Shown here: piece by piece, positions 20,424 to 54,067 of the stretch
How positions within the stretch are numbered: position 1 is the stretch's first letter
Layout: each line of letters opens with the position of its first letter
Assembly: GCA_951406725.2 (NCBI GenBank)
Contig: OX597819.1
Span: 93,992,001 to 94,056,000 of the forward strand
Direction of reading: 5' to 3'
Length of the DNA stretch: 64,000 nt
From: Octopus vulgaris
Lineage: Eukaryota
Notes under the pieces: model-generated
Told to the model about the DNA's origin: nothing
Databases searched by the model: none
The model's input: only the letters and a program-made list of their open reading frames with translations
Translations under genes and position numbers: made by a program

Positions 20424-20645
20424 ACCTGTGGGTAACTTTTCTACCTTTTTGTCTGACCAAAGGTTTTTTTTAGCCCAATATAGTCCCATTCACTTAAAGG
20501 GGATTGTAGTGTTTCAAATTACATGGTGATCTCACCTGTGGGTAACTTTTCTACCTTTTTGTCTGACCAAAGGTTTTTTTTAGCCCAATATAGTCCCATT
20601 CACTTAAAGGGGATTGTAGTGTTTCAAATTACATGGTGATCTCAC
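20424..20645. repeat. Perfect 110-bp tandem duplication
   Basis: 20424-20533 equals 20534-20643 (acctgtgggtaactttt...acatggtgatctc). Confidence 0.95.
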
Positions 20646-23601
20646 TTATGCTGGTACCATAGAAAAAGCACTCAGAACATGTAAAGGATTTAGCATTTGG
20701 AAGAGCGTCCAGCCATAGAAGCCACATCAAAGCGGTCATTGGAGTACAATGCAGTTCTCAGACACTTCAGATTTTGTAAATCCACTCAACCTATGTCAGC
20801 ATCAAATATGGATGTCAAATGATGATGATGATGTATTAAGTGCTATTATTTATAAATGCATTCGTTCATACTAAAATAAGTATACTTGGAAAGAGGGGTG
20901 TAGAATCAAAAAGAAAGCCTGTACATGGTTGTTTGGCCTTCTAGAATTAGCATCCAAATCTCACTTGAATGACATCCTACCATCTTAAGTAAAGGAAAGG
21001 CATATTTGATAGTCTTAGATATACTATATATTAAAATAAGACTGGAAGGCCATGGCTGGGTGAATTCCTGTAATCCCTTTGGATCAGAAAACACTGAGAT
21101 AAACCATAGGTTATAAAAAGTGAGATTTAGCTTTGGCAACAGTTAGTAGCTTCTGTGACATGTTCTCTAAAATGACAGGTTATTTATATAAAGGCAGAAT
21201 ACAGTTAGAATTTGTCACTGACATATTCAGTTCCAGGAGATTTTCTTTTCTCCAGGGTTGATAAAATTAACATCATTTGCATATTCAGGCTTAACAGATA
21301 TAACTAGACCTAACTACAAAACTGGTTGTCTATAGTTCATTGCAAATGTTGCTCAGAATAAAACTGGATTAAATTTGTTTGTTATTGTAATTTATGATTC
21401 AATAAAAACAGTTATGGTGAAAGTGTGTTGAAGCTAACTTCAAAATTACCACAGACTAAAAAAAAATAATAAAATATTGAAAATACTAATCTGTCCAATT
21501 GAGAAAATTTAGTTATCAACAACATTAAAACTTTAGACAAGTAAATATAACAGGGAACTTGTATATAGTCATTTGACTTGTTAGAAATAGTGATCAAACC
21601 TCCGTAAAATCACACTCTACCATCTTTTGGGTTACCTGCATATAGATAAAAGACAGGAAGGTCACAACTGGCAGACTTTTGATGATAGATAAGTCTTTTC
21701 GATCAGAGGTGTCTTGGAGGTAAGCTACAACATACACAGCTTGAGCCAGTGATGAAGCCTTTGTATCATTGTCCAGCTTGCTAGAAGTAGTAACCAAATC
21801 TACCTCAAATAACACTCTACTATCTTAAAAAAGAGAAAGTGCACATTGAATAATGTAGTCCTAGATAATACTCCTTAAAGTACTAAAAAGGATGGTCATA
21901 GTTGAAACATGTTTGGTCATCATAGATCTGCTTCATCTGTGAAGGAATGTGATCTAGTTGGTTAGGATATAAACTCATGATCATGTTTATGAGCTGGATT
22001 CTTGGAGTGGGTGGTGCATTTTGTCCTTGGGCAAAGCACTTCATTTCACATTTTCCTAATTCACTCCATTGAGAAGTAGCTGCCCTTGCAAACTCTTAGC
22101 CTAAAATCTTGCAAATGTACGATGTCAGTTGTCTTTGGTGCCTCCAGTACATTGGTTTGCTTACTTGATACTTGATTAGAATTGACCAGACAATACCCAG
22201 TAATGGCACACATAGATATTTATAAGTTCACCAAATACTTCTTTGGTCATACAAAAACGTCTTTGGATATCAAATGGAGTTCAACTTACCTGATATGATT
22301 TCTTTATTGCATACTACCATAAGCAAGTAGAAAATACAGTTTAGAGACTTAAATATACTTGTGTGCAATAAGAAGAGGAAAATTATATTGTTTGGGACAA
22401 GGCTATTTATTATGGATTTTAGTTGCGTTTTTTTTCTGTTTTCTTTTTCTTTTCTTTTTTTTCCTTACTTTCAGAAACATAACTACAGAATGTGTAGTAC
22501 GCTACAATAAGTCCAAATAAAAGTATTTCTATATTTAGTATTTTTAAATTATAGCTTATACTATATAGGTCTATATACTATGAATCTACTCAAATTGATG
22601 GAACAATGTCCATTGAAATAAATTTTATTTAGCAATAACTAATGCAGCCTACCATTATACATTTTTTTTTCACTGGTTATAGCTAAATTATGGGAAGAGA
22701 TGCACTTCCTGGAATTGTGTCATTATAGTTTATAATAAGAAAAATATGACAAACTGAGGCCCTGACAGCTAAAAATAGTAAGACTGTCAGAGTTTCACAT
22801 TATAAAACATAGATAATTGGAAGATTCCTTTAGGTTCATGCTCAAAATAACATCTGGATGTTGAATTCTGAGTTTTTATTTTTTGTTATTATTATTTTCA
22901 TTTTTTTACTTTATCTAGTATTTTGGATTTGCGTGTGTGTGTGTGGTGGGGGATGGGGGAGTTGCTTTTATTTTTTAACTTAACACATTCTTATTCATTG
23001 TTATTTCTTTTCATAAAGTCTATAGTCCTGGTAATTTGGACATTTGCAAGAATTATTAGGCCATGTTTTTATTGGTGAATATACTTTTTTAAAGACTATC
23101 TGTAAATAGTGAAGACTTTATATCTAATTTTCAGTAAAATTAATAGTGTCTTACATTATATAGCAATTGTGGGGATAATAGAAGCAGCAGTTATGGTGTT
23201 AATATCAACATTCTGTTGAAAGAAAAACAAGTGAAAAACACTCTTTTGTAACTTACAAGAAATCAATTAAAAAATAATTTTTTATTTTATTCATCTTTAA
23301 TAAGAAGCTTCCTATTATATTTTTCTATTATATCACTATATAAGATTTTTCTTCAAATTTAGATATATTTTAGAATAATTCACTTATTTTTTGCCTTTTT
23401 GTTTTTTGTTTATTCTCTGTAAGCCATTATTTTATGTTTTAATAGTATATTATGAAAATTTTACTTCTCTTTTTAATTAAAACTATACATGATATTACTA
23501 TATTAACTCAGCTCCATCTTGTTAATGATGGCTCCAGCTTTAAAAAAAAATAGCATTATTTCATTTAAGCAGCAACCCTGAAATCTCCCCTATCTATATA
23601 A

Positions 23602-30187: not shown

Positions 30188-30329
30188 CATCCTTGGAATG
30201 AACTTATTTGGGTGTAAATTTTGTGGCCAGAAAAGGATAATGTCCACGCAGACGTACTCATATGCCCACCACAACTGTAGTCGAAAGAATTTCGACTCCT
30301 TACTCTGGTCAATCCTTACTGTGTTTCAG
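30188..30329 (+). CDS. Cav3: Cav3 (T-type Ca2+ channel alpha1) domain II S5-turret-P1 cassette exon, exon 12a type (tri-cysteine CxxC...C)
   Basis: Translates as (S)[47 protein letters not shown], matching the Cav3 domain II motif ILGMxLFGCKF...[16 protein letters not shown]. Acceptor is tttgtgttttgcttcAG (30186-87), branch-like CCTAAT at 30166-71, donor CAG|GTATCG. Length 142 nt = 1 + 47 codons. Confidence 0.93.
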
Positions 30330-36916: not shown

Positions 36917-38985
36917 CACACACACACATATCTATATCTGCATGTGTTTGTATGTATATATGGATGTGTGTGTGTATATATATATATATATATAAGAGAG
37001 AGAGAGATATACATACTTACATACATACACACACACATACATAAATACATACATATATACATGCATGCATGCATACATACATGCATGCATGCATACATAC
37101 ATACATGCATGCATGCATGCATACATACATACATGTATGCATGCATACATATATATAACCCATGCCTGCATAGAAAATGGATGTTATTGATGATGATATG
37201 CATAAATGTGTGTGTGTGTGTGTGTGTGTTTATGTAATTTATTATCTGGAAGTTGAATGCCATTTAGTGTTGCCAACAAAACGTGTTCAATTAATATCTC
37301 TCTAAATTTCATTGGCCTTAAAATTCAAGCAACATTTTATGTTTATCTATAATCTCATCAACCTTTAACTCTATAGCATTAATGGAGTGCTAGGTTTAAA
37401 GTTCAAATGAAATAAGGCAAGATTTACCTATAACATATTGATTTCTTTCATGCTTAAACTGAATAATTGGCTAAGATAATGAGACTGAGATTTAGTTGTT
37501 TAGTTTTCCACATTTTTTTTTAATCCTTTTTTTTGTTTGTCTCAAACATTTGACTGCGGGCATGCTTTGGCACCACTTTAAAATGTTATAGTCAAACAAA
37601 TGAACCCTGTTACTCATTTTTTAAAGACTGGTACATATTCTATCAGTCTCTTTTGCCAAACTGCTAAGTTACAAGAAAATAAACAAATCAAGCAGTGGAA
37701 AGACAGGCACAAACACAAAGACACACACGTGTATACAATGGGCTTCTTTCAGTTTCCACCCACCATATCTACTCACAAGGCTTTAGTCAGCCTGTATCTA
37801 TAGTAGAAAACTTTTGCCCAAGGTCCCACACAGTGAGACTGAACCTGAAATCATGTGGTTGGGAAGCAAACTTCTTATCACCCACCCACTTTTAATTAGT
37901 ATAATTCCATGCCCATGATTTGCATTTGTCTTGGCTATTTACATTTGGCAGAGATGATGGAGCATTGTATAGAATGATTCACAATATTTCTTCCAATTCT
38001 CAGGCAATGAGCTGGTGGAATCGTTAGCATGCAAGGCAAAATATTTAGCAGCATTTTATCTGGTTTTACATTCTGAGTTCAAATCCTGCCGAGGTTGACT
38101 TTGCCTTCATTCTTTTGGAGTCAACAAAATAGGTACTAGTTGAGCACTGGGGTTGATGTAATTAACTTATCCCCTCATTTTTTGCTGGCCTTTCGGGGAG
38201 CAATAAAAAAAGTACTAATCTTGGATGGTGGATTAACAGAATGGTAAAAATATCACATCAGATGCTTTGCATTATTTTTCTGGCTCAATGAATTCTGAGT
38301 TCAGAATTCACCATGTTATACTTGGCCAGTAGACTTAATCCATCATCTTAGCAACTTTGATGCCTTTAGCAAAATCCACTCTGCGAAATAATTATTAAAA
38401 ATGCTTTATTTCTACAAATCACAGCAGATTACAATTTAAATTATAACATTTAAATACAAAGAAACAGAAAAAAGGTAAGATGAAAAAGAAAAAACAAGAA
38501 AAAAGAGGGTTAAAGCAGCAGAATATAAAAGTGGAGGGGGCAATGGGCCCCACACCCTTGAACAAATGGTGCACTCAGCTATGCCTCGTCATAATGGCCA
38601 CAATGGTGTTGCCATGGAGAATGACCAGCAACACTCACTGCAGCAGCCACTCCACCTTGCAGGGCTCATTTCTCAAGACATTAGTTATTATTTTTGTTGC
38701 TCTTCTTCTTCCTCCTCCTCCTCCATCTTCTCCTTCAGCCCCAAGTCAGCTCTGATCAAACAAATTTACAATCAAAGAACATAGCAAACATGTCTCTTGT
38801 ATATTAAGGACTACAATAGACAATGGTATTTCCATGCAGTAATAGTAAGTTTTGAAGAAGATTTAGTTGCTATTTCTGGTAGATCATGTAGACCCATAAA
38901 AGTAACCTCATTGGCTCAGCATGAAACTTTATGTTTTAAAAAAGTTTTCTTTTATTTTGTCATCTTATATTCGTAGAATATACAG

Positions 38986-39388
38986 GGGCAGGCATGGCTG
39001 TGTGGTAAGAAACTTGCTTCCCAACCACATGGTTCTAGTTTCAGTCCCACTGTATGGCACCTTGGGCAAGTGTCTTCTACTATAGCCTCAAGCCAACCAA
39101 AGCCTTGTGAGTGGATTTGGTACATGGAAACTGAAAGAAACCCACCATATATATGTGCATGTGTGTGTGTATGTGTTTTCCCTCCTCCCTTCCACTCCTT
39201 GTTTGTGTGTTTATGTCCCCATACATTAGCGGTTCAGTAAAAGAGATCAATGGAATAAGTAGCAAGCTTTAAAAAAAAAGTACTGGGGTGAATACATTCG
39301 ACTATAAATTCTTCAAAGTGGTGCCCCAGCATGGCCACAGTCTAATGACTGAAACAAGTAAAGGACAAAAGATAAAAGATAAAAGATA
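38986..39388 (+). mobile_element. tRNA-derived SINE family A, full length
   Basis: tRNA-like head, internal (TG/TA)n, tail actgaaacaagtaaaag(ataaaag)n. Confidence 0.9.
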
Positions 39389-40165: not shown

Positions 40166-40580
40166 GGTGTAGGAGTGGCTGTGTGGTAAGTAGCTTGCTT
40201 ACGAACTACATGGCTCCAGGTTCAGTCCCACTGCGTGGCACCTTGGGCAAGTGTCTTCTACTATAGCCTTGGGTCAACCAAAGCCTTGTGGGTGGATTTG
40301 GTAGACGGAAACTGAAAGAAAGCCATCGTATATATGTATGTATATATATGTATGTGTATGTGTATACGTTTGTGTGTCTGTGTTTGTCCCCCCAACATCG
40401 CTTGACAACCAATGCTGGTGTGTTTACATCCCCTTCACTTAGTGAGTCGGCAAAAAGAGACCAATAGAATAAGTACTAGGCTTACAAAGAATAAGTCCTG
40501 GGGTTAATTTGTTTGACTAAAGGTGGTGCTCCAGCATGGCCACAGTCAAATGACTGAGACAAGTGAAAGAGTAAAAGAAA
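40166..40580 (+). mobile_element. tRNA-derived SINE family A, full length, inserted in a Penelope-like fragment
   Basis: Same structure as the 38986 and 50506 copies. Confidence 0.9.
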
Positions 40581-50505: not shown

Positions 50506-50907
50506 GGTGCAGGAGTGGCTGTGTGGTAAGAAGCTTACATTCCAGTCACATGGTTCAAGGTTCAATCCCACTGCGTGGCACCTTGGGCAAATGTCTTTTA
50601 CTATAGCCTCAGGCCAACCAAAGCCTTGTGAGTGGATTTGGTAGATGGAAACTGAATGAAGCCCATCGTATATGTGTGTGTCTATATGTATGTGTGTTTG
50701 TGTGTCTGTGTTTGTTCTCCCACCATTACTTGACAGCCGAAGTTGGTGTGTTTACATCCCCGTAACTTAGCAGTTCACCAAAAGAGACTGATTGAATAAG
50801 TGCTATGCTTACAAAGAATAAATCCTGGGGTTGATTTGTTCGACTAAAGACGATGCTCCTGGATGGCTGCAGTCAAATGACTGAAACAAATAAAAGAGTA
50901 AAAGAGT
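50506..50907 (+). mobile_element. tRNA-derived SINE family A, full length
   Basis: Same structure, with a possible target duplication gagtggtg on both sides. Confidence 0.9.
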
Positions 50908-52069: not shown

Positions 52070-52273
52070 CGTATATATATTTACATACACACACACATAT
52101 ATATATGTATTCTCCATGTTACCAGTTTTATGTAATTACTAATTCTCTCTTCAACCTCACCTGCCATTGTAGTTGTTGTCTAACAATGTAGTCAGAAGAT
52201 ATGTAACCATTAATACTAGAACTGTTCTTTACCCAAGTTTGCCAACTGTGTCACTTTATTTTATCTCCCCACC

Positions 52274-52279
52274 TGCATG
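52274..52279 (+). promoter_or_regulatory. Candidate RBFOX-type element TGCATG inside the exon 12b 3' splice site (a second one at 52642-52647)
   Basis: accTGCATGtAG: the hexamer occupies positions -9 to -4 of the acceptor. Function is inferred. Confidence 0.45.
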
Positions 52280-52282
52280 TAG

Positions 52283-52601
52283 TGTTTTAGGCATGTGTTT
52301 TTTCGGCGGCAAATTCTGTGAAGGTCATCAGCAGAACGATGAACCCATTTACACCATCAACACCACTACTAGTACCACTGCTATTCCAATCTTCACCACC
52401 AATAACAACAACAACAATATTACCACAACTGTCACCAACATTTTTAATTCTACTACTAATTCTACTAGTACTACTACTACTACTACCACTACTACATTCC
52501 CATCACTACAAAATTGGAAACCTGCTACCAGCAATCTTAGTTGTCACTGCAAAAGAGCTAACTTTGATTCCCTTCTCTGGGCATTTATAACAACCTTTCA
52601 G
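52283..52601 (+). CDS. Cav3: Cav3 domain II S5-turret-P1 cassette exon, exon 12b type, with expanded Thr/Asn-rich turret
   Basis: Translates as (S)VLGMCFFGGKFCEGHQQ...SNLSCHCKRANFDSLLWAFITTFQ. GGKFC and CxC just before the P1 helix are 12b hallmarks. Acceptor is tgcatgtAG (52281-82), donor CAG|GTAACC. Length 319 nt = 1 + 106 codons with no stops, and the splice phases match the 12a exon. Confidence 0.9.
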
Positions 52602-54067
52602 GTAACCATTCCTTTGTTTGCTTTCATTGGGGTAGCAGTTTTGCATGCTTTGGATTTTGGGATTTTTTTTTGTTTTTTTTTTCTCTACCTTTCAGTATTC
52701 TCCATTTTTTTAATGTTGTTGTTGTTATTGTTAGTGTTGTTACAGTTGTTGTCTATTTAGTGCTTGATTAGTTTAAACCAAAATTAACCATTTCATCATA
52801 CCTGTACTAACATTTGAATAAAACTGGCCTCGTTATCCTGTTGAATGTCTGCAAATGAAAACTGAAAGGAAAAAAAAATAATAATAATAATTTGAATGTA
52901 AAGACCATCTTTTCTGATGCTGTAGTTCTTTAATTTCTTTTGTTTGTTTATATATATACTATTATGGGTTGGAAAGATGTGCAAATTTTCAGTGCTTACA
53001 TGAGAAAACTTTGAAGGAAATTATTTACATCTAAAAGAGAGTTGTTTCTTATTTTTCTTTCTTTATTTATTTCTTCATTTGTTTGTTTGTTTATTTATTT
53101 TCTCCAAAGGCTGATACAAGTAAAAAATACCAATAACCTGAATTTGTACAGACAACCGAAAGAAAGGCTATTTCTAGTAATATAACTACTCAGTAATCTG
53201 GCATATTAGCTTCTGAGATACTGTGTTTGGGAAATGTTTGTTTACACAATTTCCTGCGCAATTATCTTATCATATGAAAACACATAGTGAAAAAGGTTGC
53301 CTTACACTAAAATGTATATGAGTGTGTTGGAAGAGGGTTAGAGACAAATAAAAAAATTGCCTTTCATATATTACTGCATGGAAACAAAACTTTCAATAGA
53401 CCAACAAAGATTCAGATTTTTAAAGGATTTATTATTAATGAAGCATGGTCGTGTAGTGGAGAAGTTTGATTTGCAGTCATGTGGTTTGTACATCCAATCC
53501 CACATGGAAACACTTTGGGCAAGTACCACAGACTGGGTTTGATCAATGCCCCAGTGAGTGAAATTAGGTGCACAGAAACTTCAGAAGCCTGTCTTATATA
53601 TGTGTTATCATCATTCTAAATCTTTGTTTTCCATGCTGGCATCATGGATCAGATTAATGATTCTTCAGCTGACAAATACCAGCCTACCCACTTCACAAAA
53701 TTCTTTGCCTCTTTTCTCTTAGTTAACAAGAAGATAAAATACTCTTTGCTTCCGTATAATTCATCTTCCTTTGCCACGGTTTTGAACAGACACTGCAATT
53801 TGGTCACCCCATTACAGCCCCATACAGCTCTCTCTGCTGCCCTATGAGAAACAATTAGTTGGATGATCACATGGCATCTAGTCTCCTATTACAATGTTTT
53901 GTCATTGGAGAAACACTGCATTAGAGAAAAATAACACTAATCTCTATTGTTGTTCATGATGCTTTTAAGCATAGTTTCTATGACTGGACACCCTTCCTAT
54001 CAACAACCACTTTACAGAGTGCCTGGGCAGATATTATCATGCAGCCAGCACTAGGAAGACTATAAGG

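Follow-up and report, generated by a model that had tools for sequence, protein, structure and literature searches.

An octopus Cav3 exon 12b with a 74-residue Thr/Asn/Ser-rich insert in place of the middle CxC of the domain II turret

The alternative exon 12 pair of Octopus Cav3

The window, the 64,000-nt stretch of Octopus vulgaris DNA analysed here, carries the two alternative exons 12a and 12b of a Cav3 (T-type) channel gene (Table 1). Exon 11 lies ~1.5 kb upstream of the window and exon 13 ~52 kb downstream of 12b, starting at G000:C6:94096788; between them 12b follows 12a, and the two share phase, each comprising 1+3n nt. Exons 11, 12a and 13 together with voltage sensor domain I (VSD-I) are found in the genome and match named Octopus Cav3 proteins, while the EEDD filter motifs SLESW, TQEDW, SKDGW and TGDNW in P0295 place the channel in the Cav3 family. 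Scanned end to end by motif and by tblastn, the exon 11–13 interval yields exactly two copies of exon 12, and no third copy appears among the scored best candidates when the genome is searched with P0001 or a canonical 12b.

Exon 12a is identical in entries from O. vulgaris, O. sinensis and O. bimaculoides. It is itself lengthened, with 47 aa against a published range of 38–46, and shows 17 residues between its last two cysteines, an NCS sequon and Ser for the usual Asp before RKNF. The S1–S2 loop of VSD-I is present in the genome with its three conserved cysteines. A fourth cysteine stands at the start of S2 (LELCDHF; L014:1501-1728, equal to G000:C6:93561255-93561482), occurring in 5 Octopus entries and absent from the 39 further variants listed as most common. 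In the intron before 12a a 110-nt unit is perfectly duplicated in tandem (window 20424-20694), which may be real or a feature of the assembly. Additionally, the 12a–12b intron holds dispersed 190-nt repeats at 37698-37890, 38995-39175, 40174-40361 and 50514-50706, which lie in opposite orientations, are 76–79% alike and could form dsRNA in the pre-mRNA. The 25 longest of 3923 inverted repeats, made up of dispersed repeats and TA/ATAC arrays, offer no lead to a docking site between 12a and 12b.

Table 1. Features of the exon 12 pair in the window (positions counted from its first letter)
Feature	Position	Strand	Description	Basis
Alternative exon 12a	30188..30329	+	1 nt + 47 codons; CxxC...C; Lys in RKNF; form in all annotated Octopus Cav3 proteins seen
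3' splice site of 12b	52258..52282	+	75% pyrimidine tract (equal to 12a), TAG; no difference listed in the organism C contig
Cav3 exon 12b	52283..52601	+	319 nt = 1 nt + 106 codons; domain II S5 end, L5 turret, P1 helix	alignment with molluscan 12b
Conserved N-terminal end of 12b, VLGMCFFGGKFC	52284..52319	+
Cys5 of 12b	52296-52298	+	new; with Phe6 in the N-terminal end
Cys12 of 12b	52317-52319	+	equals Lymnaea C1054	numbering of PMC7382465
74-codon Thr/Asn/Ser-rich insert of 12b	52320..52541	+	occupies the place of the middle CxC; five sequons
Asn6 run in the insert	52401..52418	+	AAT(AAC)4AAT
Thr9 run in the insert	52470..52496	+	(ACT)5 ACC ACT ACT ACA
Conserved C-terminal end of 12b, CHCKRANFDSLLWAFITTFQ	52542..52601	+	terminal CxC, Ala92, P1 helix
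Ala92 of 12b	52557-52559	+	Lys/Ala selectivity position	PMC9694082
5' splice site of 12b, GTAACC	52602..52613	+	over the first four codons of read-through, residues identical to those of P0005

Architecture of exon 12b

Exon 12b extends from an acceptor ...CATGTAG/T at 52283 to a donor CAG/GTAACC after 52601 with no stop between, which bears out the earlier description of a 106-codon open exon of 319 nt between intact AG and GT splice sites. A recount of the insert, which lies between KFC and CHCK, returns 74 aa with the reported 25 Thr (14 ACT, 9 ACC and 2 ACA codons) and with 13 Asn, and five sequons are present in the exon at N26 (NTT), N45 (NIT), N55 (NST), N59 (NST) and N84 (NLS). With 32 Ser/Thr and 4 Pro among its 74 residues, the insert has the Ser/Thr-rich, low-complexity character of a mucin-like (PTS) domain, and its charged residues amount to 5% against a mean of 29% in other 12b turrets. 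Cysteines occur only at positions 5, 12, 87 and 89, and the middle CxC is absent. In a structure predicted for the isolated exon (AlphaFold, 3-sequence alignment), pLDDT is 45.8 and exceeds 55 only in the P1 helix region; these values are compatible with a disordered insert, although they are no proof of it.

Contigs of runs X4 and X5 reproduce the exon with 0 differences over its full length, and the insert is therefore not an assembly artefact. An assembly error or a cryptic intron, leaving an ordinary 12b, could be suspected because the region is microsatellite-rich and because all four cysteines would survive four in-frame GC-AG excisions from 52331. The GC donor, TCA/GCAGAA, is far from consensus, however, and no excision restores the middle CxC. 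Moreover, 0 of 13 in-frame GT-AG excisions of at least 40 nt keep all four cysteines, none removes the insert while sparing the ends, as the cryptic-intron test named in the earlier note asked, and a homologous insert exists in P0005. These exact contig matches, the lack of a cysteine-sparing GT-AG excision and the homologous insert largely refute the artefact, which we regard as extremely improbable. When the insert is shuffled with its dinucleotides kept, 134 of 5000 sequences are free of stops, as are 39 of 1694 222-nt stretches sampled from the window. The actual insert, however, is open in 2 of its 3 frames, so openness by itself says little.

Divergence from other 12b exons

Published 12b exons measure 48–55 aa and follow the pattern C...CxC...CxC (PMC7382465, PMC4436565). 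The comparison set comprises 57 distinct complete 12b-type exons from gathered proteins and loci, over half of them from metagenome contigs. It contains no squid, cuttlefish or Nautilus, Octopus being the only named cephalopod among the best 120 of 4405 in the full-length protein search, and its pattern excludes P0005, which lacks an N-terminal start, as well as partial gene models and the 70-aa loop of rotifer protein P0032.

The identification as Cav3 12b is supported by the partner 12a, the same phase, the GGKFC start, the terminal CxC and RANF with Ala. Specifically, the exon opens with the FGGxFC of 12b, lacking the tether Cys at FGC, closes with the terminal CxC, and carries the neutral residue of mollusc and nematode 12b, Ala92, at the position where 12a has Lys. 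The two departures claimed earlier also hold: all 57 other exons possess the middle CxC that Octopus lacks, and they span 49–55 aa, so that the 106 aa of Octopus are about twice the usual length. Judged by sequence, the exon is an orthologue of 12b that falls outside the canonical penta-cysteine class in both length and C...CxC...CxC pattern. The 57 other turrets hold at most 6 Ser/Thr each, with one sequon in 22 of them. Cys5, which the earlier note does not remark on, occurs in none of these exons, nor does any of the other unusual end residues, F6, F101, I102 and T104, although F101 and TTFQ are seen in other Cav3 channels. In the named molluscs (snails, abalone, scallops, oysters and clams) 12b always measures 50–52 aa.

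Neither a long turret nor octopus-like ends occur at any of the 56 loci of a metagenome scan, 0 of 691 candidates from a P0001 query are longer homologues, and a PDB sequence search gives 0 matches. The ESM Atlas returns Ion_trans fragments only (0.82–0.84), which serve as a lead only. We found no description of the octopus 12b exon in the literature on the Cav3 exon 12 or turret, octopus or cephalopod T-type channels and octopus CACNA1G, on which Senatore 2014 and some supplements may bear; the words 'octopus' and 'cephalopod' are absent from the main text of PMC7382465, PMC4436565, PMC9694082 and PMC10120453. Cysteines have been lost elsewhere, in the uni-cysteine 12a of Mactra and Argopecten and in a 12b entry with three cysteines (P0203, P0379, P0221), and the metagenome loci L037, L047 and L061 present tri-cysteine 12a-type exons with Ala (RANF).

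Apparent constraint on the ends and the reading frame

P0005, a genomic ORF, is the 1 match among 109 for the 143-aa frame and agrees with Octopus 12b at 29 of 30 end residues, among them the five unusual residues. Its Thr-rich insert measures 49 aa and contains 29 Ser/Thr, one sequon and one middle Cys, which brings its cysteines to the canonical total of five, in a nematode-like arrangement of positions 5 and 12, a single middle Cys and the CxC. The 74-aa and 49-aa inserts differ by several indel blocks with the frame kept. At least 2 nucleotide changes in 90 separate the ends, against at least 8 in the 21 nt of intron read-through codons 5–11, in a protein-only comparison of undated divergence whose intron figure a frameshifting indel would inflate.

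Organism C (run X13), a nearer relative, differs from the Octopus exon by 1 substitution in 365 aligned nt and a net loss of 6 nt in repeats. The substitution, 52535 T>A, produces N84K and removes the NLS sequon. In the downstream intron the same comparison finds 6 substitutions in ~236 nt and 5 in ~158 nt, with gaps of 1 and 11 nt, and the exon–intron contrast reaches Fisher p 0.017 and 0.011 (0.046 for the exon only), from contigs of depth ~3. Together, the P0005 match at 29 of 30 end residues around a 49-aa insert and the near-identity of organism C make the ends and frame of 12b look constrained and the insert length and sequon number look free to drift, on sequence comparison. The five odd end residues also fit a phase of relaxed selection.

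Annotation, splicing and the possibility of a relic

None of the 7 annotated Octopus Cav3 proteins that span exon 12 (11 cluster members, three species) contains 12b, all 7 using 12a. In other molluscs, 12b is found in 53 of 73 listed entries spanning exon 12 and in at least one entry of each of 8 clusters, counts that include at most 15 listed members per cluster and isoform entries that are not independent. This distribution suggests that 12b inclusion is low in octopus, bearing in mind that annotation can miss rare or low-complexity exons, and that T-type current in octopus flows mainly through the Na+-passing 12a form, in contrast to what snail and bivalve annotations indicate. Contigs were compared for 4 of the 20 runs listed as carrying the sequence, none of them listed as RNA (a guessed label): those of X4 and X5 run through both 12b splice sites into the intron, the X13 contig covers 12b with flanks too short to count, and X10 provides no exon-spanning piece. 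The contig rows listed have no joints or loose ends at 52283 or 52601, and with exons 11 and 13 too distant to fall in the same stretch they favour neither inclusion nor skipping of 12b.

Such a pattern would also be expected of a decaying relic, in which octopods have become 12a-only, splicing of 12b has ceased, and triplet expansions build up since they leave the frame intact by default. The annotation contrast with other molluscs, the five unusual end residues, the lost cysteines and the two open frames of the insert all fit such decay. A long exon amid very long introns may be poorly defined, and the 319 nt of 12b lie between introns of 22 kb and 52 kb. Several observations oppose it: the ends are near-invariant in P0005 while the intron flank has diverged, organism C conserves the exon more than the intron, whose indels are not multiples of 3, and the splice sites are intact. 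Furthermore, the odd residues are common to P0005, two of the features concerned (F101 and TTFQ) recur in other Cav3 channels, and the missing annotation may reflect a rare or low-complexity exon. On balance we consider a relic unlikely.

Repeat content and predicted glycosylation of the insert

The insert is proposed to have grown in the course of evolution by triplet expansion and by indels that keep the frame. Its length and the number of its sequons would drift because little would depend on either. The earlier note had gone further, proposing slippage as a possible means of tuning turret length, and had attributed the N6 and T9 runs to (AAC)n and (ACT)n. Both runs are present, but their arrays are interrupted (Table 1). 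The longest perfect triplet arrays of the insert have 4 and 6 units, against up to 21 in the introns of the window. Length differences between species are in frame, as microsatellite slippage that renders the turret polymorphic within populations would have it, yet organism A has a word share of 1.00 in 5 runs (2 possibly the source), with 0.77 in another source-sample run, and organism C has 0.73 in 13 of 13 listed runs (12 samples, 8 studies). No listed row falls between 0.77 and 1.00, and no within-species length variant of the insert appears among the listed runs, a weak test by word shares, given a capped listing that favours the best-matching runs and contigs in which rare or heterozygous alleles are concealed. 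Rather than the long pure repeats and common in-frame alleles of a coding-microsatellite tuning knob, the exon thus has short, interrupted repeats and one word share per organism among the listed runs; tunable length is not supported and strikes us as very improbable.

Judging from its sequence, the loop is probably glycosylated, and its composition would suggest dense O-glycosylation. An adaptive glycan shield would be a mucin-like loop selected to cover the outer pore, altering ion or toxin access, metal block or surface expression. A precedent is the glycosylated 36-aa insert in L5-I of mammalian Nav1.4 (PMC6259924), and N-glycans govern the surface density of Cav3.2 (PMC7373241). The Thr-richness is common to P0005 (29 Ser/Thr against 32, with at most 6 in the 57 other 12b turrets), and the remainder of octopus Cav3 is not repeat-prone, with two 5-residue runs in 2413 aa. 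Against selection of this kind, codons one change away from ACT number 5, 13 and 11 for changes at positions 1, 2 and 3, and since the third position is not enriched, there is no sign of selection for Thr itself. Sialic acid is regarded as scarce in molluscs. It is the agent to which the Nav1.4 effect is attributed (PMC6259924). Sequons are conserved neither in number nor in position, with 5 in Octopus, 4 in organism C (if N84K is real) and 1 in P0005, so the heavy glycosylation pictured in the earlier note is not supported as a conserved function. The shield is moreover predicted from sequence for an exon seen in 0 of 7 annotated Octopus proteins, and we judge it doubtful, somewhat more so than decay.

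Cysteines, ion selectivity and a proposed mechanism

The Lymnaea channel is switched between Na+ and Ca2+ preference by one residue beside the domain II aspartate, Lys in 12a and Ala in 12b (PMC9694082, PMC10120453), a rule stated for molluscs and nematodes (PMC9694082). Lys occupies this position in 40 of the 57 sampled 12b exons, so the rule is not general. Many metagenome penta-cysteine 12b exons (L015–L069) have Lys (RKNF), and the rule may not extend to them. Octopus 12b, because it keeps Ala92, is likely the Ca2+-preferring form, and by analogy with Lymnaea its channel likely still prefers Ca2+. The suggestion that the insert shifts Na+/Ca2+ preference finds no support, as the Lymnaea switch is one Lys/Ala residue (PMC9694082) and the Ala is kept.

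The bridges proposed for snail 12b are C1054–C1075, C1064–C1073 and C1062 to VSD-I C209 (PMC7382465). Removal of four cysteines from snail 12b raised the Na effect from ~2.3- to 3.8-fold, compared with ~15-fold for 12a, weakened Ca block and raised Ni/Zn potency (PMC7382465). Octopus 12b has no equivalents of C1062 and C1064, while Cys12–Cys89 maps to C1054–C1075, so that Cys87 and the VSD-I Cys would be left free of their usual partners. From the snail mutants, the lost cysteines are a more likely lever on permeability than the insert (PMC7382465).

The reading we favour, to which we assign a probability of about 0.55, is that of an intact 12b carrying a 74-aa insert in place of the middle CxC, with its ends and frame under selection, spliced at a low level or in few cell types, Ca2+-preferring, and endowed with a predicted disordered glyco-loop and altered disulfides. 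Selection on ends and frame would likely keep the exon. By the Lymnaea numbering, Cys12–Cys89 would still clamp the base of the loop, so that the insert would bulge outward with Ala92 and the P1 helix unmoved. The VSD-I Cys and Cys87 may pair with one another; alternatively the tether to VSD-I may pass to the new Cys5, which lies four residues ahead of the tether position used in 12a and in vertebrates. On the snail-mutant analogy, somewhat more Na+ leak, weaker Ca2+ block and altered Ni2+/Zn2+ block and kinetics would be expected, with no switch to a Na+ channel.

A bolder and rather unlikely extension would have octopods rebuild the calcium-type turret of their T-type channel, dropping the tether CxC, moving the tether to the S5-end Cys and raising a glycosylated, mucin-like canopy over domain II. 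They would thereby add a third T-type kind, restricted to some cell types and distinct in kinetics, metal block and toxin shielding, to the dominant Na+-passing 12a form.

No example of ion selectivity set outside the filter has been studied better than the 12a/12b switch, whose model requires a short turret that is braced by disulfides and tethered to voltage sensor I. With the loop doubled, the tether Cys and inner bridge gone and the ends under apparent selection, Octopus 12b offers a natural way to learn which of these features count, and it is directly swappable into the existing LCav3 assay.

Comparison with known systems

Octopus 12b shares with Lymnaea LCav3-12b its position downstream of 12a, the phase, GGxFC, the terminal CxC, the neutral residue of RANF and the P1 helix (PMC7382465, PMC4436565, PMC9694082). 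It differs from protostome 12b in having 106 aa rather than 48–55, 5% rather than ~29% charged residues in the turret, five sequons rather than 0–1, and a new Cys5 but no middle CxC; in addition, 12b is common in the annotation of other molluscs, whereas the annotated Octopus isoforms are without it.

The nematode 12b (CxxC...C...CxC) is reduced to one Cys in place of the middle CxC and has an extra Cys near the S5 end, a layout to which P0005 conforms with the same count of five. In Octopus the extra Cys stands at position 5, not at FGC, and the middle Cys has been lost as well; nematode loops, unlike that of Octopus, are of normal length. The 70-aa D2L5 of Cav3 P0032 from the bdelloid rotifer Didymodactylos carnosus also exceeds the published range, but it has six cysteines, is highly charged, is not of low complexity and keeps RKNF. 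This rotifer loop carries two sequons and falls outside the published 12a and 12b patterns. Finally, L5 of mammalian Nav1.4 domain I is likewise a lineage-specific, sequon-rich insertion in the S5–P loop of a four-domain channel; its insert (~36 aa, four extra sites) belongs to another family and domain, is constitutive, and has a demonstrated function, attributed to sialic acid (PMC6259924).
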